64,000 bases of DNA from assembly GCA_964348165.1 (NCBI GenBank), contig CAYGCC010000074.1, forward strand, positions 5,128 through 69,127. Reading direction: 5' to 3'. A program made the position numbers and the translations under genes. The notes beneath the pieces were generated by a model. The model did not search any database. It was not told where the DNA came from and saw nothing but the letters and a program-made list of their open reading frames with translations. Shown here piece by piece: positions 6,520-37,103 of the stretch (position 1 is its first letter; each line of letters opens with the position of its first letter). The DNA comes from an uncultured Gemmatimonadota bacterium. GTDB lineage: Bacteria > Gemmatimonadota > Gemmatimonadetes > Palauibacterales > KS3-K002.

Positions 6520-6623
6520 CCGCCTGTGCGGCATCCGCACACCCAGCGTGGCCGATTGACACGATGGGCCAACACCGGCGGTCGAGAAGCCGCATGAAAC
6601 CGTCGCGCGCGGCCGCGCACCCA

Positions 6624-6639
6624 CGGCACCCGGTTTGCC
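6624..6639 (+). promoter_or_regulatory. Sigma54 (-24/-12) promoter candidate cGGCACccggtTTGCc
   Basis: GG and GC elements are 12 nt apart, matching TGGCAC-N5-TTGC. It lies about 45 bp upstream of the ATG at 6684, directly downstream of the sigma54 activator gene. A GGAGGA Shine-Dalgarno sits at 6672-6677. Confidence 0.5.
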
Positions 6640-6683
6640 TCCGAGCGGGCGGAGGACACAGTTTGCCTGTGGGAGGAGCAAGT

Positions 6684-8372: not shown

Positions 8373-8389
8373 TCGCGGTTGGCCTGGCC

Positions 8390-8989
8390 GTGGCCTCGGC
8401 CGTCTCCCAACCCTCGGCGGCCCAACAGGCGCCTCAGCTTCTCCTATCGCCCGGCACGTCGGAGAACGGCTGGCGGGCGGCCCTCCGGCCCGTGGCTCTG
8501 CTGTCCGACTCGGCGCTCATTCGACCGCTCGTCTCCGGCCTCCCCCTCCGCTTTCACTTCCAGCTCGAGCTCTGGCATGACCGCTTTCTGTTCGACGGGC
8601 TCGTAGACCGGGCAAGCTGGACGCTGTTTCTCTACCAGGAGCCGCTGTCCGGCGACTACAGCCTCACCCGCTCCTGGGAACCGGAACGCGACGAGTGGTT
8701 TCCCACCCTGGGCGCGGCGGCGCGGGCGCTGGAGCGTTGGTACCTGGCGCCGATCCCCGGACCCGAGCCCAGCAGCGGCCGTTACTACTACGAGGCGCGG
8801 CTGGAGGTCGAGATCCTCTCGCTGGGCGACCTGGACGAGCTGGAGCACTGGCTGCGCGGCGAGGTCGGCGAGGATGAGGGCGATGTGGGGGGCGCGGTCG
8901 CCCGCGGGTTCAAGCGGCTGTTCATCCGCCTCATCGGCCTCTCGGCCCGCAAGTACGAGGCGCGCACCGAGCTGTTCCAACCTCGCTGA
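8390..8989 (+). CDS. Hypothetical protein (DUF-like, about 199 aa), probably co-transcribed with the upstream outer-membrane protein gene
   Basis: Open frame with high GC3, starting 18 nt after the upstream stop. No motif recognised. Confidence 0.45.
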   Translation: MASAVSQPSAAQQAPQLLLSPGTSENGWRAALRPVALLSDSALIRPLVSGLPLRFHFQLELWHDRFLFDGLVDRASWTLFLYQEPLSGDYSLTRSWEPERDEWFPTLGAAARALERWYLAPIPGPEPSSGRYYYEARLEVEILSLGDLDELEHWLRGEVGEDEGDVGGAVARGFKRLFIRLIGLSARKYEARTELFQPR

Positions 8990-9203
8990 CCCCGCCACCC
9001 GGCCACCCTCGACAGCGAGGGGGCCGCCGGATAAGTTATTCAGTTACAAGATTTTTTGAACCATCGGCTGCCCATCGAACGCCGGTGCGACAGAGCCAGA
9101 AAGGGGCTTCCGGGAGGGCCACACCGCCGCCCGTCGGCCCTTTTTGATTTTCTCGCGAATCGACAACCCGCGAGAATCAGAGCCTCGAGGAGGTGAATAA
9201 TAG

Positions 9204-9401
9204 ATGGTCAAAGTCATCGTCCACGAGAACGACGACCTCGAGCGCGCGCTCCGAAAGTTCAAGCGCAAGATGATCCGCTCGGGCCTCTTCCGTGACATGA
9301 AGAGAAAGCGGTACTACGAGAAGCCGAGCGAAGTAAAGCGGCGCAAGGCGCGGGCGAACGAACGTCGGCGCCGGCGTGCCCAGCGCGCGAGGCGCCCGTG
9401 A
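9204..9401 (+). CDS. rpsU: 30S ribosomal protein S21
   Basis: MVKVIVHENDDLERALRKFKRKMIRSGLFRDMKRKRYYEKPSEVKRRKARANERRRRR is typical bS21. A strong Shine-Dalgarno GGAGGTG lies 8 nt upstream. Confidence 0.9.
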   Translation: MVKVIVHENDDLERALRKFKRKMIRSGLFRDMKRKRYYEKPSEVKRRKARANERRRRRAQRARRP

Positions 9402-9408
9402 ACCCGAC

Positions 9409-9447
9409 GGGCCAGCCGCCGGCTGCCGGTGGGCTGGCCCTTCTCTT
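9409..9447 (+). terminator. Rho-independent terminator candidate after rpsU
   Basis: GGGCCAGCC-N14-GGCTGGCCC stem followed by TTCTCTT. Confidence 0.4.
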
Positions 9448-9565
9448 AATCTGCCATACGAATCGGTTGGCCCGCGACCGCAAGCACTGCTAGCTTCCTC
9501 CGACTCAGAACGGGCCCGATTCACAAACCGATCTCGCTTCAGCCTATAACCCGAGGTGTTCACAT

Positions 9566-12500
9566 ATGATCGCGATGCGTTACCGGCTTCTTAGCTGCTT
9601 AGCCGCTTGGTCCCTGCTCGTCACACCCAACCTAGAGGCGCAGGAGCCGGCCAAGAGCGAATGGGATGTGGAGGCGGACCACGGACCCTCGCGAACGCTC
9701 GAGTTCGAGACGGACGAGGGGACCTGGATGAACCTCGACGTGAGCCCGGACGGCCGCTGGGTCGTCTTCGACCTGCTGGGCGAGATCTACCGAGTTCCGA
9801 TTCGGGGTGGCGACGCCGAGCTGCTCTCCGGCGGCGTCTCTTACGAGCACCAGCCGCGCTATAGCCCCGACGGGCGGACCATCGCCTTCGTCAGCGATCG
9901 CAGCGGCATCGACAACATCTGGTTGATGGATGCCGACGGCTCGAATCGGCGACAGTTGACCAAAGAGAAAGACTCGCTTCCCACTGCCCCGGTCTGGGCG
10001 CCCGACGGTCAGTACGTGGTGGTGAAGCGGCACGTGCGGAGCACGCGCTCGCTGGGGGGTGGCGAGCTGTGGATGTATCACCTGCGGGGCGGCTCGGGGG
10101 TCAAGCTGGTCGAGAAGTTGAGCTTCACCTCCGAGCTAAACGAGCCGATGCTCTCCCCGGACGGCCGCTACGTCTATTACGTCTTCGCCGGTCCCTTCGA
10201 TTACAACCGCGACGTCCACGACGGGATCTTTCAGATCAATCGTTACGACCGGGAGAGCGGCGAGGTCGAGCCGGTAACCCGCGGGCCCGGCGGCGCGATC
10301 CGTCCCACGCCCTCACCCGACGGGCGCGCCGTCGCCTTCATCCGTCGCGTCGGGACAAACACCGTGCTCTTCATCCGCGATCTCGAGACCGGGGTCGACC
10401 GACCGCTCTTCAACGGACTGGAGAAGGACCAGATGGAGACCTGGACGGTGCACGGCGCCTACCCGGCCTTCGCCTGGACGCCCGACTCGCGGCGGATCGT
10501 GATCAACTTCGGCGGCAAGCTCTGGTCGCTGGACGCCGGCACGGGCCAGCCGGCGGCCGTCCCGTTCCGCGCGGCCGTCAGCCAGCGCATCACCGAGGCG
10601 CTGCATTTCGACTATCCGATCGCCGACGACTCCCTGCGCGCCCGCCTGATCCGCTGGCCGACGATCACCCCGGACGGCCGCCGGCTCGTCTTTCAGGCGG
10701 TGGGCCACATCTACCAGATGGGGCTGCCGAGCGGGAAGCCGCAGCGGGTCACCGACCTGGCGGCGCTGGAGTACGCGCCCGCCTTGTCGCCCGACGGCCG
10801 CTCGCTCACTTTCGTCACCTGGGACGACGACGAGGGCGGCCAAATCTGGCGCGTGCAGCTCCCGCGTCCCGGACAGCGGGCCCGGCCCCAGCAACTCACC
10901 GCCACGCCCAACCAGTACGCGAACCCGGTCTTCTCACCTGACGGCGGCCGCATCGCCTTCGTGCGCGGGAGCGGACGCGCCAATCGCGGCCAGGACCTCG
11001 GGGCCGAGCTGTACCTGGAGATCCACACGATGTCCGCCCAGGGCGGCGCGTCGCAGCTGGTCACCACCACGGCCAACCGGGGCGCGAACCGCCGCATGCC
11101 CCGGCCACGCTGGAGCGCCGACGGCACGCGGCTGCTCTATCAAGAAAGCGATGAGGACAAGACGTACCTGACCAGCGTCAAGCTGGATGGGACCGACAAG
11201 CGCCACCTGATGGAGAACGAGCGTGCGGAAGAGATCGTCCCGTCGCCGGACGGCAAGTGGGTCGCCTTCAAGGAGCTGCACAACGTGCACGTGGCGCCGC
11301 TACCGATGGCGGGCGCCGACCCGCTGAAGATCGAGGCCGGAGGCGCCGGCGTGCCGGTAAAGACGCTGACGCGATACGGCGGCGACTGGATCGACTGGTC
11401 GCGCGACAGCCGCAGCGTGAGCTATGTGCTCGGGCCGACGGTTTACCGTCATACGCTCGAAACGATCTTCGCCGAGGAAGAGGAGAGCGAGGAAGAAGAG
11501 GCGAGCGAATCGGAAGAAGAAACGAAGCCGAACCATGTCTTCGAGGGTGATCTCTTCGAGATCGCGCTCGCGGTTCCCAAGGCGCGTCCCAGCGGCGCAC
11601 TAGCGCTGACGGGCGCCCGCCTCATAACGATGCGCGGTGACGAGGTGATCGCCAACGGCACGATCGTCGTCGACGGGACCCGTATCGTGGCCGTGGGCGC
11701 GTCGAGCCAGGTGCAGGTGCCGCGCGGGGCCCGGGTCATCGATGTGGCCGGCAAGACGATCATCCCGGGACTGGTGGACGTGCACGCCCACATGGGTTAC
11801 TCCGCCCTCGACATCAATCCACAGCGCGAGTGGCGCTACTACGCCAACCTCGCCTACGGCGTCACCAGCACGCTCGACCCTTCGGCGAGCACGCAGGCGG
11901 TCTTCGCCCAGGCGGAGATGGTGGACGCCGGTCTGATGCTCGGGCCGCGCATCTACTCCACCGGGTTCATCCTCTACGGTGCCGAGAACGCCAACAAGGC
12001 GGTGATCAACAGCCTGGATGACGCCCGCTATCACATCCGCCGCCTCAAGGCGCAGGGCGCGACGGCGGTGAAGAGCTACAACCAGATGAGGCGCGACGTG
12101 CGCCAGTGGGTCATCGAGGCGGCACGCGAGGAAGGCATCCTGGTGGTGCCGGAAGGCGGCTCGATGTACCAGCAGAACATTAGCATGGTGCTGGACGGAC
12201 ATACCGGCATCGAGCACGCCATCCCGATCGCACCCCTCTACCGAGACGCGCTTCAGCTCGTCGGGCGCAGCCGCACCGGCTACACGCCCACGCTCGTCGT
12301 CGGGTATGGCGGCATCTGGGGTGAGAACTACTGGTATCAGCACTACGACGTATACGAGAACGAGCGGCTGTTACAGTTCACGCCGCGCGGCATCCTCGAC
12401 TCTCGCGCCCGCCGTCGAATGCTGATTCCCGAGGACGAATGGAACCACATCGAGCTGGCGAAGGCGGCGAAAGCGATCGTGGAAGCCGGCGGCCGCGTGC

Positions 12501-22760: not shown

Positions 22761-23423
22761 ATGGACCTGATCGAGTTTCTCAGCCGGAATCGCGCCGAGT
22801 TCATCACTCTAACGTTCGAGCACCTGTTCCTGGTCGGCGTCTCCACTGGCGTGGCGCTCATGGTCGGTGTGCCCCTGGGGATACTCCTGACGCGCAGCCC
22901 GCGCTTCAGAACGCCGGTGCTGGGACTGGCCAACATATTCCAAACCATCCCCAGCCTGGCGTTGTTCGGCTTCTTGATCCCGATCCCCTTCATCGGCGGT
23001 GTGGGCGCCCGTACGGCGATCGTCGCGCTGATCCTCTACGCGCTGCTCCCGATCATTCGCAACACCTACGCGGGGATCCAGGGCATCGACCCGGCGGTGC
23101 GCGAAGCGGGTCGCGGGATGGGGATGACCGATCGGCAGCTGCTGTTCATGGTCGAGATCCCCCTCGCCTTCGGCGTTATCCTGGCCGGGATCCGGGTGGC
23201 GACGGTGATCGGCGTCGGTGTCGCCACCATCGCCGCCGCCATCGGCGCCGGCGGCTTGGGCGTCTTCATCTTCCGCGGCGTCGCCATGGTCAACAACACG
23301 CTCATCCTCGCCGGGGCGGTGCCGGCGGCGCTGATGGCGTTGGCCGCCGACTTCCTGCTGGGACGGCTGGAGCGCCGCTACGCGCCGGGGCACGCGCGGC
23401 TGGCCGAGGTACGTGCGGCGTGA
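22761..23423 (+). CDS. Osmoprotectant ABC transporter permease
   Basis: Multi-TM protein with an OpuAB/ProW-like EAA region (VREAGRGMGMTDRQLLFMVEIPLA). Confidence 0.8.
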   Translation: MDLIEFLSRNRAEFITLTFEHLFLVGVSTGVALMVGVPLGILLTRSPRFRTPVLGLANIFQTIPSLALFGFLIPIPFIGGVGARTAIVALILYALLPIIRNTYAGIQGIDPAVREAGRGMGMTDRQLLFMVEIPLAFGVILAGIRVATVIGVGVATIAAAIGAGGLGVFIFRGVAMVNNTLILAGAVPAALMALAADFLLGRLERRYAPGHARLAEVRAA

Positions 23424-24328
23424 GGGTCACGGCGCTTCTCGCGGCGCTCGTCGCGACCGGCTGCGGCCTGCTGGGCGGCGACCGAATCGTCGTCGCCTCG
23501 AAGAACTTCACCGAACAGACGATCTTGGCCGAGCTGGTCGCCCAACAGATCGAGCGGCGCACCGACTTGAAGGTCGACCGCCGCTTCTTCCTCGGCGGGA
23601 CGTTCGTCTGCCACCGCGCGATCGTCGCCGGCGAAGTCGATCTCTACGTGGAGTACACGGGCACGGCGCTCACCGCGATCCTGGAACGGTCGCCCCGACA
23701 GAGCGCCGCCGCCGTCTACGACACGGTGCGCGCCGTCTACGCGCGGCGCTTCGACCTGGAGTGGGGCCGTCCCCTCGGGTTCGACAACACCTTCGCCATC
23801 CTCGTTCGCGGCGCCCACGCGCGAGAGCTCGGCCTGGCGACCATCTCTGACGCGGCGGTCCACACGCCAGGCTGGCGGGCCGGCTTCGGCTACGAGTTCA
23901 TGGAGCGCGAGGACGGCTTTCCCGGGCTGGCGAAGACTTACGGGCTCAAGTTTACCGAGACGCCGCGCACCATGGACCTCGGACTCACCTATCGCGCCCT
24001 GGCCAACCGCCAGGTCGATCTCATCGCCGGCAACTCCACCGACGGCCTGATCGAGGCCCTCGACCTCTTCCAGCTCGAGGACGACAAGCATTACTTCCCA
24101 CCTTACGAAGCGGCGCCGGTCGTGCGCCATCAGCTGCTCGAGCTGCACCCGGAGGTCGGACGGGCGCTGGACGCGTTAGCCGGCCGCATCTCCGACGCCG
24201 AGATGCGGCGGCTCAACTACCGGGTGGATGTGGAGCATCAGGACGTCGCCCTCGTAGTGCGGGAATGGCTTGAGGCGAACCTGCCAACGGCGGAGGCCGG
24301 CGACGAGGTGGAGGCCGTGTCGCGGTGA
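23420..24328 (+). CDS. Osmoprotectant-binding lipoprotein (OpuAC-type substrate-binding protein)
   Basis: Lipobox LVATGCG. ATGA overlap with the permease gene. Substrate-binding-protein fold inferred from context and length. Confidence 0.75.
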   Translation: MRVTALLAALVATGCGLLGGDRIVVASKNFTEQTILAELVAQQIERRTDLKVDRRFFLGGTFVCHRAIVAGEVDLYVEYTGTALTAILERSPRQSAAAVYDTVRAVYARRFDLEWGRPLGFDNTFAILVRGAHARELGLATISDAAVHTPGWRAGFGYEFMEREDGFPGLAKTYGLKFTETPRTMDLGLTYRALANRQVDLIAGNSTDGLIEALDLFQLEDDKHYFPPYEAAPVVRHQLLELHPEVGRALDALAGRISDAEMRRLNYRVDVEHQDVALVVREWLEANLPTAEAGDEVEAVSR

Positions 24329-24823: not shown

Positions 24824-25297
24824 GTGAACCCTCTTCACCCCGAGGTTGTCCTGGTTTGGCGGGTGTCCGGCCTGCTCACCGCCCTTTTCCTCACGGCGAT
24901 CGTGGCGGCGCTGGAGGGCCTGTTTCTCACGCCCAAGGGCCTGGCGCTGATCGCGCCCCGGGTCATCGTGGGCTTGACCGCGCTCATCGTCATTCCCCTG
25001 GCGCTGATCTGGCCACGCCTGCGCTATCGCTATTGGCGCTGGCAGGTCGAGGCCGACCGCGTTCTGATCGAGAGGGGCGTGCTCTGGCGTTCGCGCTCGC
25101 TCATCCCGCGGGTTCGCATTCAACACGTAGACACCCGCAGCTCGCCCCTGCAGCGCTGGCTGGGGCTCAGCTCGCTGATCATCTACACGGCTGGCACCCG
25201 CGGGGCGGATGTTGAGATCCCCGGACTCGCCGCTGACGACGCCGAGGCGCTTCGCGAGCAGTTAGCGCGCCTGGAAGAGCTGGATGAACGTGGCTGA
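24824..25297 (+). CDS. YdbS-like bacterial PH-domain (bPH_2) membrane protein
   Basis: Two TM helices, then RVRIQHVDTRSSPLQRWLGLSSLIIYTAG, typical of bPH_2. Confidence 0.75.
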   Translation: MNPLHPEVVLVWRVSGLLTALFLTAIVAALEGLFLTPKGLALIAPRVIVGLTALIVIPLALIWPRLRYRYWRWQVEADRVLIERGVLWRSRSLIPRVRIQHVDTRSSPLQRWLGLSSLIIYTAGTRGADVEIPGLAADDAEALREQLARLEELDERG

Positions 25298-25395
25298 ACC
25301 GTCCGAACTCGGCGCACCCCAGGTTGGGGAAGAGTGGCGGCGGCTTCACCCGCTCACTCCGGCCCTGCGGTCGGTCCAGCTCACTGTGCCCGCCA
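25155..25395. repeat. Left copy of the roughly 240-bp imperfect direct repeat (ydbS 3' end + ydbT 5' start)
   Basis: Aligns by eye with 31222..31462 at roughly 9 of 10 positions, e.g. GGGGCTCAGCTCGCTGATCATCTACACGGCTGGCACCCGCGGGGCGGA. Confidence 0.7.
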
Positions 25396-25400
25396 CCCGG
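25284..25400 (+). pseudogene. 5' remnant of a ydbT-like gene (MNVAEPSELGAPQVGEEWRRLHPLTPALRSVQL...), disrupted by the cbb insertion
   Basis: Matches the N-terminus of the intact YdbT-like protein at 31350 (…TWQRLHPLTPALRSIQL), then diverges into Arg/Pro-rich sequence. Confidence 0.55.
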
Positions 25401-26017
25401 TGGCGCTCGGCCGGCTGGCGTACCGGGCCGATCCCGGCACGGTCACCTATCAGTCCGATAAGACGAGCGGGCCCATGGCGGGCACCGAGGACCGTGGACG
25501 CGCTCGAGTTCCTGGCACGGGTGAAGAGCCATATCCCCAACAAGGGCCAGGCCCGGTCCCGCCCGCGCAGTCGGGGGCTCTTGGGGTGGGCGCGGTTCGG
25601 CTCCTCACCGAGGGGGGCCCGGATTCCCCGGCTGCCGATCGCTGATCGGGCCCCCCGGATCCCCCGCTCCACGTCCCACAAGCACGCCCAACTCTGGCCT
25701 CGCTGGACGCGCTTGCGGCCCAACGCTACTTTGGGAGGCGCGATTGAATTCCAATGCCGATGCCGATGTGACTGCAGTTGACCCAGCCCCGGCGCCAGTT
25801 GGTGCTGCAATGCTTAGCGGACCGGGACGGCAAGAGAGGCCGGCGGACGGGCGGCCGCGGCACCGAATAGCCTTTCATCGCCGCGAACGATTATGCAGCC
25901 CGCCGGATGGCGTCACCCCACCCATTCGGGCGGGGACCACCCACCCGTACCGCCTGCCCCGTTTGGCGGTTGTGAGGTCGCCGCGAAACCGCCACTATGT
26001 TCTTGTGAATCTGTTCT

Positions 26018-26033
26018 TGTGAATCTGTTCACA
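26018..26033. promoter_or_regulatory. Perfect CRP/FNR-type palindrome TGTGAATCTGTTCACA
   Basis: TGTGA-N6-TCACA. A half-site copy lies 14 bp upstream, forming a tandem TTCTTGTGAATCTG x2. About 500 bp upstream of cbbP. Confidence 0.3.
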
Positions 26034-26538
26034 TGCCCGCTCTTGATCGAAGCCAACGCCCGCGCCGTAGGCCGAAAACGCGGCTCTGTGGGGGGCCGGG
26101 TGGGTTCCGATCGCGGAGCCGGAGGTGTTGATGCACGGCGCGCGCACTCTATCCACCGGTACGCGGTCAGCGAGGATACGCTGCGCACCGTCTTCTACGA
26201 GCCCGGGTGCCGGGGTGTCGCCCTGGGGGGCATGGTGCTCAAGCCGAATCTGGTGACCTCCGGGCTCGCGGACGCCGAGCGCTGGTATCCGGCCGGTGGC
26301 GGAGGAGAGGGTTTGCTGCCTCGCCACCGCGGTGCCGGCGGCGGTAGCGGAGATCGCCTTTCAAGGGCGGGCGCTCAAGCCCTGGAGAGGCGATGCGGCA
26401 ATGTACTCGAGTCCCCAAAAGCCCTCCTGCATTGGGCGAGACTCAACGTCACGGCTGGGCGAGGTCGTTATTCGGCCGAAATGGAACAGGCGGTGGCTTG
26501 ATGGCCGGCCCGGACGCGGATGCCGCGAGGAGCAGCTG

Positions 26539-27450
26539 ATGTCGAGGAAGCATCCCATCATCGCGGTAACCGGCTCATCCGGAGCCGGCACGACGACCGT
26601 CAAGGCGGCTTTTGAGCACATCTTCTTTCGGGAGAAGATCAAAGCAGTGATTATCGAGGGTGACAGCTACCACCGTTACGACCGGTACGAGATGCGGGAG
26701 GCCATCGCGGTGGCCGCCGCGGAGGGGAAGAGCCTGAGCCATTTCGGGCCGGAAGCAAACCACCTCGACAAGCTGGACGCTCTCTTCGAACAGTACGGCA
26801 GAACCGGCACGGGCGAGCACAGGCATTACCTCCACAACGAAGAGGAGGCCAAGCCCTACGGTCAAAAACCCGGCACGTTCACTCCGTGGGAGCCGATCCC
26901 TGACGGGACGGATCTTCTGATCTACGAAGGCCTCCATGGTGCAGTCATTACCGAGACGGTGAATGTCGCGAGACACGCCGACCTGTTGATCGGCGTGGTC
27001 CCGATCGTCAACCTCGAATGGATACAAAAGATTCACCGAGACACCGAAACGCGCGGCTACCGACCCGAGGACGTGACCGAAACCATCCTGCGCCGGATGC
27101 CGGACTATGTACACTATATCGTTCCCCAGTTCTCGGTCACGGACATCAACTTCCAACGTGTGCCAACGGTGGACACGTCGAACCCGTTCATCGCCCGCGA
27201 TATCCCAACTCTGGACGAGAGCTTCGTCGTCATCCGGTTCCGGGATCCGACAAAGTTCGATGTCGATTTCCCTTACCTCCTGGCGATGCTGCACGACTCT
27301 TTCATGTCGCGGCGCAACTCGATCGTGGTGCCTGGGGGCAAATGGGGGGTGGCGATGGAGATTATCCTCGCCCCCATCATCAAGCGGTTGGTCGAAGGCA
27401 GCGGCGGAGTTCGCGGTGACCGCGCGGAAGCGCTCTCCGCTTCCCGGTGA
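26539..27450 (+). CDS. cbbP: Phosphoribulokinase
   Basis: MSRKHPIIAVTGSSGAGTTTV P-loop and EGDSYHRYDR. Bacterial PRK size (about 300 aa). Confidence 0.9.
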   Translation: MSRKHPIIAVTGSSGAGTTTVKAAFEHIFFREKIKAVIIEGDSYHRYDRYEMREAIAVAAAEGKSLSHFGPEANHLDKLDALFEQYGRTGTGEHRHYLHNEEEAKPYGQKPGTFTPWEPIPDGTDLLIYEGLHGAVITETVNVARHADLLIGVVPIVNLEWIQKIHRDTETRGYRPEDVTETILRRMPDYVHYIVPQFSVTDINFQRVPTVDTSNPFIARDIPTLDESFVVIRFRDPTKFDVDFPYLLAMLHDSFMSRRNSIVVPGGKWGVAMEIILAPIIKRLVEGSGGVRGDRAEALSASR

Positions 27451-27577
27451 GTCGGCGGACGGATTCGATGCCCGCCGCGCTTTGCAGGATCTGCCCTGAG
27501 GCGTCACCGCCAAAAGGGTCGGGTAACCACGTCCTACTTATCGCCACAGTCGGATCTTTTATGGAAGGGAGCTTTGA

Positions 27578-29041
<1,464 letters not shown>

Positions 29042-29056
29042 GGAGGGTCCGTTTCC

Positions 29057-29500
29057 ATGAGCACCGGACTTCGAATCACCCAGGGAACCTTCTCCTACCT
29101 GCCCGATCTCAGCGACGAGGAGATATACGCCCAGATTCAATACGGGATCGACCAGCGGTGGGCAGTGGCGATCGAGTACACCGACGACCCGCATCCCCGC
29201 AACGTGTACTGGGACATGTGGGGGATGCCGATGTTCGACCTGAAAGACGCCTCGGGTGCAGTGATGGAGGTCAACCGCTGCCGGGATACCTTCTCGAACC
29301 ACTACATCCGGGTGACCCTGTACAATCCCAAGCTGACCAAGCAGACCACAGGGCTGCAGTTCCTCGTGAACCGCCCCGAGCACGAGCCAGGCTTCCGGCT
29401 CGACCGCCGGGAGGCGCACGACCGGGTCGTCCACTACACCTTGCACTCTTACGCGGCCGAGCGCCCCCATGGGGACCGCTACCGTGAGGACGGCCGCTAA
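29057..29500 (+). CDS. cbbS: RuBisCO small subunit (red-type)
   Basis: [23 protein letters not shown] ... WGMPMFDL ... YIRVTLY, with a C-terminal extension typical of red-type small subunits. Confidence 0.9.
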
Positions 29501-29512
29501 AAGGTATTATCC

Positions 29513-30646
29513 ATGAGCAGCCAAAAGACTCCCGCCGACAAGGGGCCTCGACGGCCCGGTACGGAGGTTCCCGTCGCACCGCCGATGGGCCTGGGGATGG
29601 AATCCAAACCCAAAGGGATCCTGGAGGTGGAGGCCGAAGGCGAATTCGCCAAGCTGGCCGACCCGCTCAACGAGATTCCCGACGATCTCGAGATCCGCGT
29701 CGACGATGTCCTACGAGACAGCCGCGTGGCGGAGGTCCTTGAGTCCTTCGACCGGGAGTTGGTGGCGCTGAAACAGGTCAAGCGGCGTATCCGCGAGATC
29801 GCGGCGCTCCTTCTGATCGAGCGGCTGCGCCGCTCGATCAACCTCGAGGCGGAGCCGCCCACGCTCCACATGTGTTTCACCGGCAACCCCGGCACCGGAA
29901 AGACCACCGTCGGGATGATGATGGGCAAGATCCTCTTCAAGCTCGGTTACGTCAGGAAGGGCCACCTCGTGGCGGCGGGCCGGGAGGACTTGGTCGGACA
30001 GTACGTGGGCCACACCGCGCCCAAGACCCGCGAGGTCGTCAAGCGGGCCATGGGTGGGGTGTTGTTCATCGACGAGGCCTACAACCTGTACCGGCTCGAC
30101 AACGAGCGCGACTATGGGCAAGAGGCGGTAGAGCTCTTGCTTCAGCTGATGGAGAACGAGCGCGACAACCTGGTGGTGATCATGGCCGGGTACAAGGACA
30201 AGATGGAGCGCTTCTTCAGCGACGTCCCTGGCATCAGGTCGCGCATCGCCCATCATATCGACTTCCCCGACTACTCGTTGGAGGAACTGATTCAGATCGG
30301 CGCGCTGATGCAGAAGAAGCAACGCTATCGGTTCTCTCCCGCAGCCGAGAAGGCCTTTGAGAAGTTGCTCAAGCAAGGCATCTCCCATCCCGGTTTCGCC
30401 AACGGACGCAGTGTGCGAAACGCCCTCGACCACGCACGCCTGCGCCAGGCGATCCGGCTGTTCAATACCGCCGAGCGTGGCGGGAAGCTGACCAAAGCCG
30501 ATCTGGTGACCATCGAGGAGGCGGACGTGCTCGAGATCCGGGCGTTCGCGGAGGGCATTCCAGCGGCGGATCGAGGCTCGAGCGACCTAGCCCGCGCCGA
30601 CGAGCGGCGCCCGGATTTCAAAGGCTCGGGGACGCCAGGTGACTGA
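29513..30646 (+). CDS. cbbX: CbbX, AAA+ red-type RuBisCO activase
   Basis: Walker A GNPGTGKTT, Walker B VLFIDEAYNL, and sensor region MAGYKDKM. N- and C-terminal extensions beyond the canonical length of about 310 aa. Confidence 0.9.
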   Translation: MSSQKTPADKGPRRPGTEVPVAPPMGLGMESKPKGILEVEAEGEFAKLADPLNEIPDDLEIRVDDVLRDSRVAEVLESFDRELVALKQVKRRIREIAALLLIERLRRSINLEAEPPTLHMCFTGNPGTGKTTVGMMMGKILFKLGYVRKGHLVAAGREDLVGQYVGHTAPKTREVVKRAMGGVLFIDEAYNLYRLDNERDYGQEAVELLLQLMENERDNLVVIMAGYKDKMERFFSDVPGIRSRIAHHIDFPDYSLEELIQIGALMQKKQRYRFSPAAEKAFEKLLKQGISHPGFANGRSVRNALDHARLRQAIRLFNTAERGGKLTKADLVTIEEADVLEIRAFAEGIPAADRGSSDLARADERRPDFKGSGTPGD

Positions 30647-30872
30647 ACAGCCGGAAATCGTCATCGCGCGTGTGGTCCTGGGGCGCAAGGACCCCACCAC
30701 CCTCGTCGGGTTTCAATGGACCGGGGTCGACATCGCCGGGCTCTACGACCCCGATCAGGCGCTGATGCTGGGGGCGGTCTGGGAGGGCGACGAGCTGGTC
30801 ACCTACAACCTGGCGGCGCTGGAACACAACGTTCGAACCCAGAACGACAGGCTGCTGGAGGATCCCGATTAG
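30639..30872 (+). CDS. Small hypothetical protein (77 aa) translationally coupled to cbbX
   Basis: A GTG start overlaps the cbbX TGA (GTGACTGA). Confidence 0.4.
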   Translation: MTEQPEIVIARVVLGRKDPTTLVGFQWTGVDIAGLYDPDQALMLGAVWEGDELVTYNLAALEHNVRTQNDRLLEDPD

Positions 30873-30881
30873 CCGACGCTT

Positions 30882-31163
30882 TCATCCACCCGATTCGGGT
30901 GCGGCCACTTCGGCCCCAGGAAGCTGATCGATTAACCCTTCAGCCCCGTAGGTCTGATAATTCCGCCGGATCTCGTAGAACTGCTGTCGACTGTAGCCCA
31001 TGATCCGGCACTCCTTGCTCACGTTCCCCAGCTCCTGCGCCAGCTGTAGCAGACTGAGCTTCCGTCGTGCTATCTCTCCCTTCTGGACGGTGGTCATCTC
31101 CTCCTCCGGGTCTTGAGTGGATTCGGCAACTCTCAAGGAACCCCGGCGAAGGCAGTTGGCCAC
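30882..31163 (-). mobile_element. IS-family transposase N-terminal (HTH) remnant
   Basis: …IARRKLSLLQLAQELGNVSKECRIMGYSRQQFYEIRRNYQTYGAEGLIDQ resembles the N-terminal HTH of IS481-like transposases. The ORF stops after 93 aa. Confidence 0.5.
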
Positions 31164-31221
31164 CGTCTTCTGTTTAGCCTATTGTGTCAGGTGAATACCG
31201 TCACACTTCACACCTTAGTCC

Positions 31222-31462
31222 GCGGTTGGGGCTTAGCTCGCTGATCATCTACACGGCGGGCACCCGCGGGGCGGACGTGGAGATTCCCGGGCTCGCCGCC
31301 GACGACGCCGAGGCGCTTCGCGAACAGTTAGCGCGCCTGGAAGAGCTGGATGAACGCGACTGACGATCACGAGCTACCCGCGAGCGGTGTGGAAGGCCCG
31401 GAGACGTGGCAGCGCCTGCACCCGCTGACGCCGGCCCTGCGATCGATCCAGCTGGTCTACGC
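31222..31462. repeat. Right copy of the roughly 240-bp imperfect direct repeat (ydbS 3' remnant + ydbT start)
   Basis: Encodes …LGLSSLIIYTAGTRGADVEIPGLAADDAEALREQLARLEELDERD*, matching the YdbS C-terminus at 25160..25297. Confidence 0.7.
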
Positions 31463-32924
31463 CCTGGCCATCGCGGCGGTCGCCTCGTCGGTGGGAGTGG
31501 GTTCGACCGTTCTGATCCTGATCGTGGCGGCGGCCGTCATCGCCGCCTGGATCACACTCGCCTATCTCCGCTTCCGCTATTGCGTCACCGAGGACAGTCT
31601 GATCATCCAGCACGGCGTGCTTGTGCGAAGGCGGCGCGTAATCCCCCGCTCGCGGATTCAAAACGTGGACCTGCGGGCCGGGTTGCTGAACCAGCTGCTC
31701 GGCGTCGTGGTGGCCAGGATCGAGACCGCGGGTGGCGAGGCCAGCGAGGCGACGCTTAGCGTCGTGGCGCGGAGCGAGGCGACACGGCTGCGCCGAACCC
31801 TGGTGGCCAGCGCCCTGGGAAGCGCGCCCGGCCTTACACCGGACGCCGGGGCGGTCGAACCATCGGCGATCTTGGAAGGCGCCACCGCGCTCCCAGCTGA
31901 CCGGATCGTTCGCCGATCATCGCTGCTCGACCTCGTGCTTGCCGGCGCCACATCCAACCGGGCCGGCGTGCTATTCGCCGCACTGCTGGGCGGCGATTAC
32001 CTGTTCGAGTTCATGCCCACCGATTGGCTCCTGCGGCGTTTCGTCGCGCCGGAGCTCGTGCAGCCGGACGCCGCGGTTAGGGCGCTGATCCAAACGGCCG
32101 AGCGGGACGTTCAGGCGTTTCTCACGGGGTTGGTGGTCGTGTCGATCTTCTTCGCGCTAGCCGGCTGGGGCCTGTCGATCGCCCTGAGCGTGGTCCGTTA
32201 TTACGACTTCACGCTGGTCGCGGGAGGAGGCGATCTGCAGGTCAGCTATGGACTGTTCACCCGTCGCGAGAAGGGATTCCGACGCAACCGCGTTCAGAAC
32301 GTGCAGATCGAGGAGCCGATCCTGCGGCGATGGCTCGGGCTCGCCACGATGCGCGTTCAGACCGCCGGCTACGGTCCGGGGATGAAGGCCGATGAACGGG
32401 TAGAGACGCTCACCCCCATCGCGCGACGTGGCGAGATCCCCCTCTATCTCAGCGAAGTGCTCCCGGGCCTCGTATGGGAGAGCAGCGAGTGGCGACCGTC
32501 TCACCCACGGGCACGACGCCGGTTGTTCATCCGCCGGGCGCTGGTCGTCCTGCTGGCAAGCGGCGCACTGACACTCCTCACACCATACGGACTCGCCTTG
32601 CTGGCCGCGCTGCTGCCGGCCTGGTTGCTCGCCGCGGCCCACTACCGCCACCTGGGCCACGCCCGCGCCGGCGACTACGTGCTGGTTCGCGAGGGACTCT
32701 GGAACCGCCGCACTTACATCGTGCCGGTGCGCAAGATTCAGGCGCTCCATTTGCGGCAGTCCCCGCTTCAACGGCGTCTGGGACTGGGGACGCTGGTCAT
32801 GGACACAGCCGGTAGCCCGCACGAATGGCACCCGCCCCGCTCCATCGATTTGGGAACCGATTACGGGCGTGAGCTGATGCATGGCCTGGCGACCAGCGTC
32901 AGCGTCACAGGCCTCAACTTCTGA
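31350..32924 (+). CDS. YdbT-like membrane protein with three bPH_2 domains
   Basis: Repeated …RIQNVDLRAGLLNQLLGVV…, …RVQNVQIEEPILRRWLGLAT…, and …IQALHLRQSPLQRRLGLGT… modules, each preceded by TM pairs. Confidence 0.75.
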   Translation: MNATDDHELPASGVEGPETWQRLHPLTPALRSIQLVYALAIAAVASSVGVGSTVLILIVAAAVIAAWITLAYLRFRYCVTEDSLIIQHGVLVRRRRVIPRSRIQNVDLRAGLLNQLLGVVVARIETAGGEASEATLSVVARSEATRLRRTLVASALGSAPGLTPDAGAVEPSAILEGATALPADRIVRRSSLLDLVLAGATSNRAGVLFAALLGGDYLFEFMPTDWLLRRFVAPELVQPDAAVRALIQTAERDVQAFLTGLVVVSIFFALAGWGLSIALSVVRYYDFTLVAGGGDLQVSYGLFTRREKGFRRNRVQNVQIEEPILRRWLGLATMRVQTAGYGPGMKADERVETLTPIARRGEIPLYLSEVLPGLVWESSEWRPSHPRARRRLFIRRALVVLLASGALTLLTPYGLALLAALLPAWLLAAAHYRHLGHARAGDYVLVREGLWNRRTYIVPVRKIQALHLRQSPLQRRLGLGTLVMDTAGSPHEWHPPRSIDLGTDYGRELMHGLATSVSVTGLNF

Positions 32925-33214: not shown

Positions 33215-35512
33215 ATGGCTGACGCCCGAGAAACGCACCGAACTGGGTTCGACTTCGCGACCGCCATCCTGGAGGCATGCGCCGCGCTGATCGTGGTGCT
33301 CGATCGTGACGGCCGCATCGTCCGCTTCAACCGGGCCTGCGAACGGCTCACCGGATTTTCCAGTCGCGAAGTGGAGGGCAAGCCGGTTTGGGAAGTCTTA
33401 CTTCTTCCCGAGGAGGTCGGAGGAGTCAAGAGAGTGTTCGCCGAGCTGCGCGACGGCCGCTTTCCCAACAAGCACGAGAATTGCTGGCTGACCAAGAACG
33501 GCGATCGCCGTCTGATCTCTTGGACCAACACCGCTGTCGTGGCCAGCGATGGCTCGGTCGACTACGTGATCGGAACCGGCATCGACGTCACAGATCACAG
33601 GCGGACCGAGGAGGAGCTGGCAAAGTTCCGGCTCGGCATCGAGCGCAGCGGCGAGATCATTTTTTTGACCGATCGGGAGGGACATATCCTGTACGTGAAC
33701 CCTGCCTTCGAGCGCATCTATGGCTTCAGCAAAGAGGAGGTGCTGGGACGAACGCCGCGCATCCTGAAGTCGGGTCTACACGATCGGGAGGTCTACAAGC
33801 AGATCTGGGAGATGCTGCTGGCCAAAGAGACCGTATCCAGCGAGATCGTCAACAAGACGAAAGACGGGCGGCTGCTCACGATGTCCAGCTCCGCCAATCC
33901 GGTTCTGGACGAAGAGGGCAACATCGTCGGGTTTCTAGCGATCCAGCGCGACATCACCGAGAGGAAGATGACAGATCGCGCGCTGAGGGAGAGCGAGGAG
34001 CGCCTGCGCACGCTGATGGAAAAAGTGCCGGACGGCGTCGGCGTGCTGGCCACCGACGGGCGTATCCTTTACGCCAACCCGGCCATGGGCGCGTTGCTCG
34101 GATACACTACCGACCAGATGTTAGGCCGGCGAGTGACAGACTTTCAGCATCCCGAGGACCGGGGCCGCGCGGCCGATCGCATCAAGTCACTCCTCCGGGG
34201 TGGCCCCGAGAGCCCGGCGCAGTATCGCCTGATCCATAGGGACGGCAGCGTCGTGACCTCGGAGATCACCTCACGGGTGATCGAGTTCGAGGGCGAGCCC
34301 GCTCTGCTCAGCACGGTCCGCGACCTCACCGAGCGCATGGAGCTGGAGGAGCAGTTACGCCAGGCCCAGAAGATGGAGGCAGTGGGTCAGCTGGCAGGCG
34401 GAATGGCTCATGACTTCAACAATCTCCTGACCGTGGTGCAGGTCAACACCGAGCTCCTCGCCGATAGGCTGCCCGAGGCCGACGGTCAGGTGACCGATGA
34501 CATTGAAGAACTGAAAGCGGCCGTCGCCCGCGGTAAGAAGCTGATCGAGAAGCTCCTCGCCTTCAGTCGGCGCGAGGAGCTCAAGATCGAGCCACTCGAC
34601 CTGCGGAAGCTGATCACCGACTTCGAGCCGACCCTGCGCCGCTTACTGCCCGAGAACATCGATATCCAGATCGACCCGCCCGACGGGCTCGATAAGGTCC
34701 TCGCCAGCGCCGGGTCAGTCGAACAGATCGTGATGAACCTGGCCACCAACGCACGCAACGCCATGCCCGAGGGCGGCCAGCTCCGCCTGGCGCTTTGGCC
34801 GACTTACCTGGAGGCCGCGGACTGGTTCGCCACCGGACGGACCGTTCCCGGCGCATTCGTTTGTCTGGCCGTAAGCGACACCGGCATCGGCATGGACGAG
34901 CTGACGCAGGCACGCTTGTTCGAGCCCTTCTTCACGACCCGGCGCAGCTCCGGCGGCACGGGTCTGGGCATGGCGGTCGTGTACGGGCTGGCCAAGCAGC
35001 TTGGCGGCCACGTACACGTCTACAGCGAGCTGGGCCAAGGCACGACGATCAAGGTTTACCTGCCCGTGGCCGCGCCCGACTTCGGCGAGGCGCCGCCCGT
35101 CGGCGAGACGGCGATAGAGGTACGAGGCGGAAGTGAGACGATCCTCGTGGCGGAAGACGAGCCAGCGCTGAGGCGAGCGGCCCGGCGGATCCTCGAGCGC
35201 CTGGGTTACCAGGTCCTGCTGGCCGCGGACGGCGATGAGGCGTTGAGAGTATTCGAGGCGAACCAAGATCGAATCGATTTGATCGTCACTGACGTGGTCA
35301 TGCCGAAGCGCGGCGGCCGCGCTCTATATCAAGCGCTGCGTGAACGCGGCGCTCAAGTCCCTTTCCTTTTTGCCAGCGGCTACACGGCGGGCGATGTGGA
35401 GGAGAGCGCTCAGCTCGATCCCGGGCTTCCCTTCCTGGCCAAGCCGTGGACGTTGAGCGAACTGGCCCAGAAGATCCGACAGGTTCTCGACGCCAAAGGA
35501 GTCGAGAGCTAG
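33215..35512 (+). CDS. Hybrid sensor histidine kinase (multiple PAS domains - HisKA - HATPase_c - REC)
   Basis: At least three PAS-like modules. H-box GGMAHDFNNLL. G-boxes DTGIGMD and GTGLGMAVV. C-terminal receiver with DLIVTDVVMPKRGG. Confidence 0.85.
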   Translation: MADARETHRTGFDFATAILEACAALIVVLDRDGRIVRFNRACERLTGFSSREVEGKPVWEVLLLPEEVGGVKRVFAELRDGRFPNKHENCWLTKNGDRRLISWTNTAVVASDGSVDYVIGTGIDVTDHRRTEEELAKFRLGIERSGEIIFLTDREGHILYVNPAFERIYGFSKEEVLGRTPRILKSGLHDREVYKQIWEMLLAKETVSSEIVNKTKDGRLLTMSSSANPVLDEEGNIVGFLAIQRDITERKMTDRALRESEERLRTLMEKVPDGVGVLATDGRILYANPAMGALLGYTTDQMLGRRVTDFQHPEDRGRAADRIKSLLRGGPESPAQYRLIHRDGSVVTSEITSRVIEFEGEPALLSTVRDLTERMELEEQLRQAQKMEAVGQLAGGMAHDFNNLLTVVQVNTELLADRLPEADGQVTDDIEELKAAVARGKKLIEKLLAFSRREELKIEPLDLRKLITDFEPTLRRLLPENIDIQIDPPDGLDKVLASAGSVEQIVMNLATNARNAMPEGGQLRLALWPTYLEAADWFATGRTVPGAFVCLAVSDTGIGMDELTQARLFEPFFTTRRSSGGTGLGMAVVYGLAKQLGGHVHVYSELGQGTTIKVYLPVAAPDFGEAPPVGETAIEVRGGSETILVAEDEPALRRAARRILERLGYQVLLAADGDEALRVFEANQDRIDLIVTDVVMPKRGGRALYQALRERGAQVPFLFASGYTAGDVEESAQLDPGLPFLAKPWTLSELAQKIRQVLDAKGVES

Positions 35513-35520
35513 CCGACTGG

Positions 35521-36192
35521 CTACCTCTGAAGTATTTTGGGATGGCGTATCGTCTTCCCTTCCACCTGGTAGACGACGTCTTCCCCGATGTTGCAAGCTA
35601 GATCCGCCACCCGCTCGATGTTGCGGCCGATGAGAATGAAGGAGAGTGCCTGGCCAATCTCTGAGGGCGACTCCATCATCATCGTAATCGCCGATCGCAG
35701 GTGGGACTCGTGTAGCTGGTCGACGCGATCGTCCCGTTGGGGCACGCTGCGCGCTTTCGCCGCATCGTGCTGCACGAAGGCGTCGAGCACGTCGCGCAAC
35801 ATGCCGCGCGCGATCGAAGCGGCCTCGGACAACTCGATCGGCAAAGACCAGTCGCTGTGCTGTTCGATCAGGCGCTGCGCGGTCTCGGCGATATTGACGG
35901 CGTGATCGCCGATTCGCTCCAGGTCGTTGTTGATCTTGAGGATCGCCACCAGGCGGCGCAGATCACCCGCCATCGGCTGCTGGAGTGCCAAGAGCTCGAC
36001 GCATTCCTCCTCGATCTCGACTTCCGTCGCGTCGATCTCACGATCGCCCAGGATGACCGCCTCGGCCTTGCCGTTGTCACGCTCGTGGACGGCCTCCAGC
36101 GCCGTATCGATCAGCCCCTCGATCAGGCGCGACATGGCGACGAGTCGGCCCGTCAGGTCATCCAACTTCTTCTCGAAGTGCGTGCGCGCCAT
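35521..36192 (-). CDS. phoU: Phosphate signalling complex protein PhoU
   Basis: Two PhoU repeats, with …NNDLERIGDHAVNIAE… and …GRNIERVADLACNIGE…. Confidence 0.85.
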   Translation of the reverse strand: MARTHFEKKLDDLTGRLVAMSRLIEGLIDTALEAVHERDNGKAEAVILGDREIDATEVEIEEECVELLALQQPMAGDLRRLVAILKINNDLERIGDHAVNIAETAQRLIEQHSDWSLPIELSEAASIARGMLRDVLDAFVQHDAAKARSVPQRDDRVDQLHESHLRSAITMMMESPSEIGQALSFILIGRNIERVADLACNIGEDVVYQVEGKTIRHPKILQR

Positions 36193-36203
36193 CTCCTGAT
36201 CCC

Positions 36204-37103
36204 CTAGCCGAACCGGCCCGTGATGTACGCCTCGGTTCGCTCATCATCCGGGCTGGTGAACAGCCGGTCGGTCTCCCCGTACTCGATCAGGCGACCCAGG
36301 TTCATGAACGCGGTATAGTCGGCCACCCGCGCCGCCTGCTGCATATTGTGAGTGACGATCACGATCGTGTAGTGCTGCGCCAGTTCCCGCATCAGCTCTT
36401 CGATCCGGCCCGTGGCGATGGGGTCCAAAGCGCTCGCCGGTTCGTCCATCAGGATCACGTCCGGCTCTACCGCTAACGCCCGGGCGATGCAGACGCGCTG
36501 CTGCTGGCCGCCCGAGAGGCCGAGCGCGCTATCCCGTATCCGGTCCTTGATCTCATCCCAGAGCGCCGCCTTGCGCAACGCCAGCTCAACGCGCTCCGCT
36601 ATATCGCCGGTGTAGCGATTCACCCTGAGACCGAAGGCTACATTCTCGAAGATCGACTTCGGGAAAGGATTCGGCTTTTGGAAAACCATGCCGATGCGGC
36701 GACGCACCTCGACCGGGTCGACATCGGGACTGTAGAGGTCTTCGCCGTTGAACAGCACGGTGCCCTCGCACCAGGATATCGGGATCACGTCGTTCATTCG
36801 GTTGAAGGCACGCAGCAATGTGCTCTTGCCGCTGCCCGAAGGACCGATCAGAGCCGTGATGCGATTCCGCGGAATCGTCAGCGAGATATTGTGAATCGTC
36901 TTGGCCGAGCCGTAGTAGATGCTCAGGTCTTCAGTGGCCAGCACCGGGTCGGCGTGCACCATGATGTGGCGTGGATCGCCGTCCAGCTTGTCCAGATACC
37001 CGAGCTTGTTATTCGACTCCGCCGTCGTCATCCCCGCTCGCTCCGCTTCCTGCGCAGGTTGGGGCATTCGCATCTTGACCTCGGCCACGCGGTCGGGACT
37101 CAT
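36204..37103 (-). CDS. pstB: Phosphate ABC transporter ATP-binding protein PstB (alternative start at 37031)
   Basis: Walker [10 protein letters not shown], signature LSGGQQQRV, Walker B ILMDEP. The start forms an ATGA overlap with the pstA stop. Confidence 0.88.

Follow-up and report, generated by a model that had tools for sequence, protein, structure and literature searches.

Gemmatimonadota are abundant bacteria, mostly heterotrophic or photoheterotrophic, for which gene trees have so far given the only account of how some members gained CO2 fixation, namely lateral transfer. The soda-lake metagenome-assembled genomes (MAGs) of the order SG8-23 are described, in the main text of the original report, as carrying a laterally acquired prk-rbcL-rbcS set that might permit mixotrophy (Zorz et al., 2019, PMC6748926). 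Their RuBisCOs are assigned there to form IC and share more than 90% of their amino acids with Alphaproteobacteria (Rhizobiales YIM 77505) (PMC6748926), and a later review presents these MAGs as the first candidate photoautotrophic Gemmatimonadota (PMC8779627). Here we analyze a 64,000-nucleotide stretch of DNA (the window) from an uncultured Gemmatimonadota bacterium (assembly GCA_964348165.1, contig CAYGCC010000074.1, positions 5,128–69,127 of the forward strand), in which the Calvin-cycle genes prk, cbbL, cbbS, and cbbX lie in an island that splits the gene pair ydbS-ydbT. We consider it likely that DNA from a related lineage integrated through homology into a native ydbS-ydbT pair and split it, probably in a Campbell-type event, and that the core of the island was later exchanged again. 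The kind of event is known, and transfer of Calvin-cycle genes into Gemmatimonadota has already been published.

The window resembles the SG8-23 MAGs in phylum, in its similar guanine-plus-cytosine (GC) content, and in having contiguous genes for phosphoribulokinase and both RuBisCO subunits. In contrast to the alphaproteobacterial-like form IC enzymes reported for SG8-23, the nearest named relatives of its RuBisCO are Actinomycetota and Dormibacterota MAGs, and the window additionally carries cbbX and a small gene, orf77. The main text of PMC6748926 describes no insertion site, repeats, insertion sequence (IS) remnants, or exchange between lineages. Judged by sequence similarity, the RuBisCO of the window looks like an acquisition separate from that of SG8-23.

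Two further groups of cbb loci invite comparison. Actinomycetota-type red form I clusters (often called form IE) share the order cbbL-cbbS-cbbX-orf77; the cluster with the closest cbbL (L023; protein P0004, 86%) includes a class I aldolase gene, whereas the window has only a dead aldolase, and it is a full set with cbbR, gap, tkt, and a different type of phosphoribulokinase (PRK), whereas the set in the window is minimal and chimeric, its prk being Gammaproteobacteria-like. The cbb operons of proteobacterial megaplasmids (Cupriavidus necator pHG1 and others) likewise combine red-type cbbL-cbbS-cbbX with prk, but they are 69–71% identical to the window at the nucleotide level and also carry rpe, fbp, tkt, and cbbR. 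Protein identities to the C. necator large subunit, small subunit, CbbX, and PRK are 70%, 57%, 60%, and 62%, respectively. No near relative of the island was found in the plasmid collection, which returned such proteobacterial operons only.

As for mechanism, Campbell-type integration by a single homologous crossover is familiar from F-prime and specialised-transducing elements and from suicide-plasmid knock-ins. Those cases and the window have in common a direct duplication of the homology, two parental origins, an empty site in relatives, and no need for an integrase or attachment (att) site. The window differs in that the homology spans only ∼230 bp with a hypervariable stretch inside it, and in that its copies are not reciprocal hybrids, the left being wholly recipient-type and the right wholly donor-type.

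The island is bounded by two direct repeats on the forward strand. The left repeat (25158–25381) consists of the 3′ end of an intact ydbS-like gene and codons 1–33 of a ydbT allele, and the right repeat (31224–31453) of a 3′ remnant of ydbS (31224–31363) and the 5′ end of an intact ydbT-like gene. The intact ydbS (24824–25297, forward strand; one bPH_2 domain, Pfam expectation value [E] 5.5e-22) contributes its last 140 nucleotides to the first block of the left repeat, and the intact ydbT (31350–32924, forward strand) has three bPH_2 domains (Pfam E 7.2e-51 over three stretches). The stranded ydbT 5′ remnant (MNVAEPSELGAPQVGEEWRRLHPLTPALRSVQL; 25284–25381, forward strand) is truncated at codon 33, beyond which the sequence is unrelated. 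A repeat search resolves two matching blocks, 25158–25297 with 31224–31363 (140 nucleotides, 92%, spacing 6066) and 25334–25381 with 31406–31453 (48 nucleotides, 85%, spacing 6072); the 36–42 nucleotides between them are only ∼50% identical and include a 6-nucleotide in-frame indel. An earlier, sequence-only reading of the window had proposed imperfect direct repeats at both flanks, and a MAFFT alignment of 25155–25395 with 31222–31462, at 88% mean identity, bears this out. The same reading had the pair split by about 5.9 kb, for which we measure 5,842 bases between the repeats, and its account of the boundaries (intact ydbS with a ydbT 5′ remnant on the left, a ydbS 3′ remnant with intact ydbT on the right) is correct. 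The left copy keeps the 14-nucleotide overlap of ydbS and ydbT. The right-copy-type ydbT starts with MNATDDHELPASG and the left-copy-type with MNVAEPSELGAPQ; in translation, the remnant and the intact gene share the PALRS motif and an N-terminal extension specific to the clade. The stranded start also opens a 165-codon chimeric open reading frame (ORF; 25284–25781) into the adjoining IS91 fragment, overlapping the ydbS stop as in the native pair, and a junk fusion peptide may be translated from it.

To establish the state of the site in relatives, we scanned for ydbT in one genome per species and obtained 18 Gemmatimonadota loci, 17 of them informative (one, at 88%, is truncated). The Gemmatimonadota orthologues are 60–66% identical to the window ydbT, and distant matches occur in Enterococcus and Phycisphaerales. 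In all 17 informative loci ydbS lies directly upstream of ydbT, as it also does in three Enterococcus loci, and none of the 17 has prk, cbbL, cbbS, or cbbX within ±10 kb of the pair. Because the two genes are adjacent and cbb-free throughout, the contiguous ydbS-ydbT pair is ancestral, as the sequence-only reading had supposed in calling the pair normally adjacent. Best-match taxa likewise agree with that reading: the cbb genes match non-Gemmatimonadota, and ydbS and ydbT have close matches in Gemmatimonadota only. The truncated locus belongs to the closest other relative (L017, CAYGAJ010000117.1; ydbT 88% and PAS kinase 79% identical at the amino acid level), whose contig is broken inside ydbT, at position 1. 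This break may reflect strain heterogeneity at the locus.

The junctions recur outside the window's own assembly. Near-identical copies (99.7–99.9%) with both junctions are present in two other NCBI assemblies (L027; L030 with L032) and in a run of the European Nucleotide Archive (L028), and junctions were recovered in GCA_012974965.1, GCA_012974945.1, ERR2564004, SRR33214992, and SRR14116344. When metagenomes were scanned by pattern for closely related junctions, only the JABAOF record came up. In addition, three Logan unitigs (L029, L039, and L047) define a sister lineage, here called L, with flanks ∼10–15% diverged from the window. In L029 and L039, prk-cbbLSX-orf77 is accompanied by the same truncated IS481 element, the same start of the ydbS remnant, ydbT, and the PAS kinase gene, L039 (SRR14116344) repeating the right junction. 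Unitig L047 carries OpuAC, orf89, ydbS, and a ydbT 5′ remnant, followed by sequence collinear with window positions 25894–26016 and 26463–26537. The last 30 nucleotides of L047 are identical to the first 30 of L029, and by this overlap lineage L carries the island at the same site. It is without the IS91 fragment and without most of the aldolase pseudogene present in the window.

These recoveries bear on whether the locus could be an artefact of assembly or binning, in which a cbb fragment of Actinomycetota or Proteobacteria was misjoined and the repeat stems from collapsed strain variants. The assemblies are metagenome-derived, and position 26508 is a shared break point of several Logan unitigs, which might raise such a suspicion. 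We find this explanation hardly credible: the two junctions recur across independent assemblies and samples (L027, L030, L032, L029, L039, and L047), so the contig is not chimeric; GC at third codon positions (GC3) matches the host; parts of genes belonging to the host lie within the island; and the break at 26508 is explained by the 30-nucleotide overlap between L047 and L029.

The parentage of the repeats emerges from an alignment of four copies, W_left and W_right from the window and L_left (L047) and L_right (L029) from the sister lineage, with sites classed over columns 29–242. W_left stands apart at 27 sites and by the 6-nucleotide in-frame indel, compared with 7 sites unique to L_left, 2 to W_right, and 10 to L_right; three sites part the left from the right copies, and one parts the lineages. 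In the ydbT 5′ part, W_left is 56–62% identical to the other three copies, which are 82–89% identical to each other. Across the lineages, W_right is closer to L_left than to its own partner W_left, both in the ydbS part (94.3% versus 92.1%) and in the ydbT part (89% versus 62%). We read W_left as the native allele of the window lineage because it is the outlier among the four and because its distance to L_left is that of the flanks (the proportion of differing synonymous sites, pS, is 0.30 in the ydbS part, compared with 0.22 for ydbS codons 1–111, 0.27 for ydbT, and 0.33 for the PAS kinase gene). W_right is read, from the same alignment, as an L-type and hence donor-type allele that would have arrived with the island. 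The two diverged junction copies noted in the sequence-only reading are, by this four-way comparison, from different lineages.

The character of the differences points the same way. W_left and W_right look like working alleles in how they differ, with 15 of 19 codon differences synonymous (ydbS, 10 of 12; conserved ydbT stretch, 5 of 7; P=6e-6 under pure neutrality, P=0.002 against the expectation of 0.44 for an in situ duplication). The W_left ydbT N terminus keeps its reading frame, the WxRLHPLTPALRS motif, and the N-terminal extension confined to this clade. The remnants of the sister lineage show neutral decay: the L_right ydbS remnant has five non-conservative replacements (Y>H, T>A, I>N, L>H, and L>P), and the L_left ydbT remnant has lost its start codon (ATG>ATC) and gained a stop (TGG>TGA).

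The near star-like pattern of the four copies in the ydbS part would suit a different history, in which the island and the duplication arose once, in situ, in a common ancestor and were followed by decay and by gene conversion or allelic replacement of the flank. Such replacement is conceivable, as the two lineages do exchange DNA (the 3.7-kb tract described below). Nevertheless, we give this history little credence. The left remnants are unequal in the ydbT 5′ part, with 20 unique sites and the indel in W_left against 2 sites in L_left, and the right ydbS remnants, for which ∼15–20 neutral changes would be expected, have no common derived change apart from one three-state site; this asymmetry and this lack of shared changes both count against an ancient in situ duplication. 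Moreover, the W_left N terminus retains its protein pattern and frame, and replacing the left flank to within 9 nucleotides of the junction would call for a crossover placed just where the homology ends. A third lineage as the source of the left ydbT remnant was also considered and was dropped once the left junction in L047 was found.

Divergence between the window and lineage L forms a mosaic along the locus. In the coding left flank, pS is 0.15–0.30, and the left ydbT remnants differ by 38% and the indel. Within the island, divergence is 8–9% in the left interior, 6.7% in the 5′ half of prk, 0.9% mismatches over 27001–30734, and 11.5% in the IS481 remnant, followed by 7% in the right ydbS remnant; farther right, pS is 0.27 for ydbT and 0.33 for the PAS kinase gene. 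Synonymous sites of the flanks thus differ more between the lineages than do neutral sites within the island and the right repeat. The less-diverged unit comprises the insert plus the right repeat (25382–31453; 6,072 nucleotides), which is what a single-crossover circle would contain. Inside it, a 3.7-kb core (27001–30734, aligned with L029 494–4228), made up of the 3′ half of prk, cbbL, cbbS, cbbX, and the first third of orf77, is 99.1% identical, with sharp breakpoints at ∼27000 (in prk) and ∼30735 (in orf77). This pattern points to a second, more recent homologous exchange of working cbb genes between the lineages. In the part of prk to the left of the breakpoint (window 26539–27000, L029 32–493), codons 1–77 have a proportion of differing nonsynonymous sites (pN) of 0.056, close to their pS of 0.057, and codons 78–154 have a pS of 0.23 and a pN of 0.054. 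This reflects either relaxed constraint at the N terminus or a further mosaic boundary; invariant residues are kept nonetheless.

In the model we favor, a native overlapping ydbS-ydbT pair would have been opened by ∼6.07 kb of DNA (25382–31453) from a closely related lineage. The incoming DNA would have been a decayed mosaic of an IS91 fragment, an aldolase pseudogene, prk, cbbL, cbbS, cbbX, orf77, and a truncated IS481 element, and beside the IS481 end it would also have carried a ∼230-bp piece of the donor's ydbS-ydbT junction. Recombination through this piece would have placed the donor copy of the ydbS 3′ and ydbT 5′ ends on the right, where it is now the start of the working ydbT, and would have left 33 codons of the recipient's own ydbT stranded behind the intact ydbS on the left side. 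Topologically, this is most simply pictured as one Campbell-type crossover with a circular molecule, with resolution where the short homology ends on the right. Once the DNA was integrated, homologous recombination would have exchanged the core, from the 3′ half of prk to cbbX, a second time. We infer the circular intermediate and the direction of transfer from these patterns. The IS481 element had presumably inserted into a donor ydbS gene beforehand, and the presence of IS remnants beside a dead aldolase hints at a larger mobile replicon or island of which the incoming DNA was one decayed part. Two hallmarks of Campbell integration are found at the locus, a flanking direct duplication of a segment that is single-copy in relatives and an origin of the two copies from two parents. 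A Campbell crossover explains why the outer repeat boundaries are fixed in both lineages, why the copies differ in parentage, and which unit was transferred.

Several observations weigh against this model. The left copy is recipient-type to within 9 nucleotides of the junction, so that a single crossover must be resolved at the end of the homology, or an unrepaired heteroduplex must segregate. We saw neither a circular form nor an integrase or att site, and a promoter and terminator scan gave signals at background level only. We found no island-free genome of the window's own lineage, which would prove W_left to be native. The pS of the left flank (0.15–0.30) is only modestly above the neutral divergence of the island, and the ydbS part taken alone offers small site counts (10 versus 5 synonymous differences). 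The sister lineage is known from short unitigs, with both junctions linked only in SRR33214992, and its ydbT remnant reaches ∼window 25368 before 81 bases to which no assignment can be given, so that an identical left junction is not demonstrable. Two candidate matches for these bases (L047 1470–1550) were rejected: similarity to the IS91 fragment, which would have given a common left junction at the nucleotide level, is reached by 216 of 2000 shuffles, and similarity to window 25838–25867 by 322 of 2000.

The state of the left junction is also what recommends an alternative in which linear donor DNA was homologous to the recipient at its right end, in ydbS/ydbT, and was joined illegitimately at its left end, produced by a random break within the IS91 transposase gene, to codon 33 of the recipient ydbT. 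Homology-facilitated illegitimate recombination of this sort is known from natural transformation. Because the IS91 fragment begins mid-gene right at the junction, within a transposase reading frame, the junction is not an IS end; a recipient-type left copy up to the junction is predicted without any special crossover position; and the left junction of the sister lineage is not demonstrably identical. However, the sister ydbT remnant ends ∼13–18 nucleotides from the window junction, a proximity that would be unlikely for two independent joins and is expected if both lineages inherited one fixed junction, and the donor's own duplication is left unexplained. We therefore regard a linear join as unlikely and retain Campbell-type integration as the probable route. 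Of the mechanism put forward in the sequence-only reading, homology-dependent acquisition from a related lineage stands; its Campbell topology is probable but not separable from a linear join with one-sided homology.

The prk, cbbL, cbbS, and cbbX genes of the island are intact. The prk gene (26539–27450, forward strand) encodes a 303-residue phosphoribulokinase of proteobacterial type (NCBIfam NF011997, 498.5 bits with a cut-off of 362; Pfam match, 220 bits) that keeps every column invariant among its homologues. The cbbL gene (27578–29041, forward strand) encodes a 487-residue form I red-type RuBisCO large subunit with both expected domains (PF02788 and PF00016, E 2e-134 and 2.3e-42) and the motifs KPKLG, DFTKDDE, HAGT, and GGGTIGHP. 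Its best solved structures are red-type, from Galdieria (1bwv and 4f0h), R. sphaeroides (5nv3), and C. necator (1bxn), at 762–793 bits, compared with ∼640–676 bits for plant and cyanobacterial chains; by these scores the enzyme sits nearer the red lineage (IC/ID/IE) than the green (IA/IB). The cbbS gene (29057–29500, forward strand), starting 16 nucleotides downstream of cbbL, encodes a 147-residue small subunit (Pfam RuBisCO_small PF00101, E 3e-35).

The cbbX gene (29513–30646, forward strand) encodes a 377-residue AAA+ homologue of the red-type RuBisCO activase, with AAA and AAA_lid_6 domains and the Walker motifs GNPGTGKT and LFIDEAY. Residues 60–361 align with R. sphaeroides CbbX (PDB 3syk/3syl; E 4.4e-110), and the protein falls just below the NCBIfam equivalog cut-off of TIGR02880 (434.7 versus 459.25 bits). 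Compared with the 309-residue R. sphaeroides chain, it has ∼55 extra N-terminal and ∼16 extra C-terminal residues (29513–29690 and 30560–30646). The C-terminal tail is charged, and both extensions are kept in the sister lineage; the N-terminal one could reflect a start codon called too far upstream.

Intact motifs, the retained PRK invariants, and a ratio of nonsynonymous to synonymous divergence (dN/dS) of 0.10–0.29 between lineages for cbbL, cbbS, and cbbX, on few changes, suggest that the cbb genes are functional. Phosphoribulokinase and RuBisCO are the only enzymes specific to the Calvin cycle, the other steps being available from central metabolism. The island would accordingly supply a phosphoribulokinase, a red-type form I RuBisCO, and a CbbX activase, with the remaining steps drawn from central metabolism, and the module may be expressed and may serve an autotrophic or mixotrophic role.

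As to origin, the best named matches of prk are Gammaproteobacteria (76–80%), and its product is only 26% identical to the PRK of the cluster with the closest cbbL (L023). CbbL is 78–86% identical to sequences of the Actinomycetota/Dormibacterota type, with 82–86% for Actinomycetota-type sequences, against 70% to the form IC enzyme of C. necator; outside its own species cluster it reaches at most 86%, its named matches are Actinomycetota and Dormibacterota MAGs at 82–84%, and no alphaproteobacterial name appears among its best 120 matches. Its provisional form IE (actinobacterial) label is placed by best-match identity and not by phylogeny. Given these affinities, the module is chimeric, with a Gammaproteobacteria-like prk and Actinomycetota-like RuBisCO and CbbX. 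With the nearest named relatives of both cbbL and prk outside Gemmatimonadota, the cargo is probably of foreign origin. Exact-protein look-ups gave no match for the window ydbT and cbbL; prk and cluster members did have matches.

Directly behind cbbX, and overlapping its stop codon with a GTG start, lies orf77 (30639–30872, forward strand), a conserved small protein of 77 residues. Its family comprises proteins of ∼70–77 residues in 48 homologous clusters, the named members being Actinomycetota, and is marked by an invariant RVVL (RVVLGR), a near-invariant GAVWEGDELVT, and a C-terminal D.D. A full-length homologue directly follows cbbX in L023 (12872–13090). Another (L044, 6001–6240; L045) comes after a cbbX with a frameshift, in surroundings that look mobile and contain no RuBisCO, and in other Actinomycetota homologues lie in type VII secretion loci with an EccC-like FtsK ATPase and WXG100 proteins; a further homologue is at L040 6001–6234. 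Searches of Pfam and NCBIfam assigned orf77 to no family, and its AlphaFold model (mean predicted local distance difference test score, pLDDT, 77) has no PDB fold match at E≤0.001. The protein could be a previously unrecognised small partner of AAA+ ATPases of the CbbX/EccA type.

The remainder of the insert is decayed. Its left end (25382–∼25601, forward strand) is a frameshifted fragment of an IS91-family (Y2) transposase, a weak assignment that reaches Pfam Y2_Tnp (22.5 bits, cut-off 20.9; E 1.3e-4) only on the stitched two-frame translation and NCBIfam IS91 at E 0.012. A spacer follows (25602–26097) that has no Pfam or Rfam match, of which 25894–26016 is 92% identical to the sister lineage (blastn against L047). 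Upstream of the aldolase pseudogene, an exact 14-nucleotide tandem duplication of TTCTTGTGAATCTG occupies 26000–26027 and is followed by TTCACA; the sister lineage has a single, diverged copy of the TTCTTGTGAATCTG 14-mer (L047 ∼1657–1675). The class I fructose-bisphosphate aldolase pseudogene (26098–26501, forward strand) retains the C-terminal half only, with frameshifts and an internal deletion. Its stitched translation matches Pfam Glycolytic at E 2.7e-19 (profile 169–256 onward) and the single-frame ORF at 0.0016; tblastn of the L023 aldolase against the window gave no match, the pseudogene becoming visible only once the frames are stitched. At the right end, on the reverse strand, is a truncated IS481-family element (30882–31221) that consists of the 5′ end, the leader, and the first ∼71 codons with a helix-turn-helix, its outer end abutting the right repeat. 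It matches NCBIfam IS481 at 1.8e-7 (profile 2–49 of 284) and HTH_28 at 9e-10, and with its DDE domain deleted it is a remnant and not an active member. The same truncated element stands at the same junction in L029 and L039, decayed to 68% amino acid identity, and no further copies of the IS481 or IS91 fragments were found in any locus examined. Pfam, NCBIfam, and PDB matches agree with the gene content listed in the sequence-only reading (prk, cbbL, cbbS, cbbX, a coupled small ORF, and a truncated IS transposase), which had missed the IS91 fragment and the aldolase pseudogene.

Base composition contributes less than it first appears to. Raw GC is lower in the island (0.59–0.66) than in its surroundings (0.66–0.70; 66.1% for the window overall), as the sequence-only reading had said. 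However, GC3 of cbbL, cbbS, and cbbX (0.84–0.86) equals that of the flanking genes (0.80–0.90), and native stretches at 33250–34000 and 35250–37000 have GC as low as the island. The dip thus lies in codon positions 1 and 2 and does not mark foreign composition, and we set aside low GC as a sign of foreignness. The features of a classical genomic island, an integrase or recombinase with a tRNA-adjacent att site and a deviating base composition, are absent here: the 64-kb window contains no tRNA and no recombinase gene, and no island ORF has a recombinase domain, the only mobile-element remains being the IS91 and IS481 fragments. An Rfam search gave a single sub-threshold chance match.

Upstream of ydbS lie the gene for the glycine-betaine-type ABC transporter component OpuAC (23420–24328) and a small 89-residue ORF, orf89, between the two; downstream of the intact ydbT is the PAS histidine kinase gene. 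OpuAC-type genes are also found upstream of ydbS in 10 of the 17 informative relatives. In four loci (L002, L009, L011, and L016), ∼3.2–3.4 kb separates OpuAC from ydbS, the genes abutting in other relatives, and in L002 this gap (6558–9814) holds two ORFs of 439 and 576 residues that have no Pfam match. The neighborhood just upstream of ydbS therefore varies across the order. The rest of the window encodes transporters, peptidases, regulators, and glycosyltransferases. It contains neither cbbR nor any other Calvin-cycle gene, and to call the module self-contained, as the sequence-only reading did, overstates the case.

Considered together, these data add several elements to what is known of CO2-fixation genes in Gemmatimonadota. 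They would provide a second, independent RuBisCO lineage in the phylum and a module reduced to two pathway-specific enzymes and an activase, drawn from at least two sources. They also offer an exact chromosomal entry scar with donor-type and recipient-type alleles, in which the matching allele of a sister lineage would identify the kind of donor and whose core genes appear to have been exchanged again later. A bolder and doubtful extension, which we put forward tentatively, is that the 6.07-kb unit is a recurrently mobile, integrase-free circular cassette among related Gemmatimonadota that captured a host locus as its integration arm, with orf77 as a possible partner of the CbbX/EccA type. If so, RecA-type homologous recombination would spread a minimal autotrophy module across species boundaries. 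On the likelier reading of Campbell-type entry followed by re-exchange of the core, the locus would be a natural and testable counterpart to the engineered route to autotrophy in which prk and RuBisCO are enough, and it would indicate that metabolic modules can pass between related species by way of a short captured homology, with no integrase involved.

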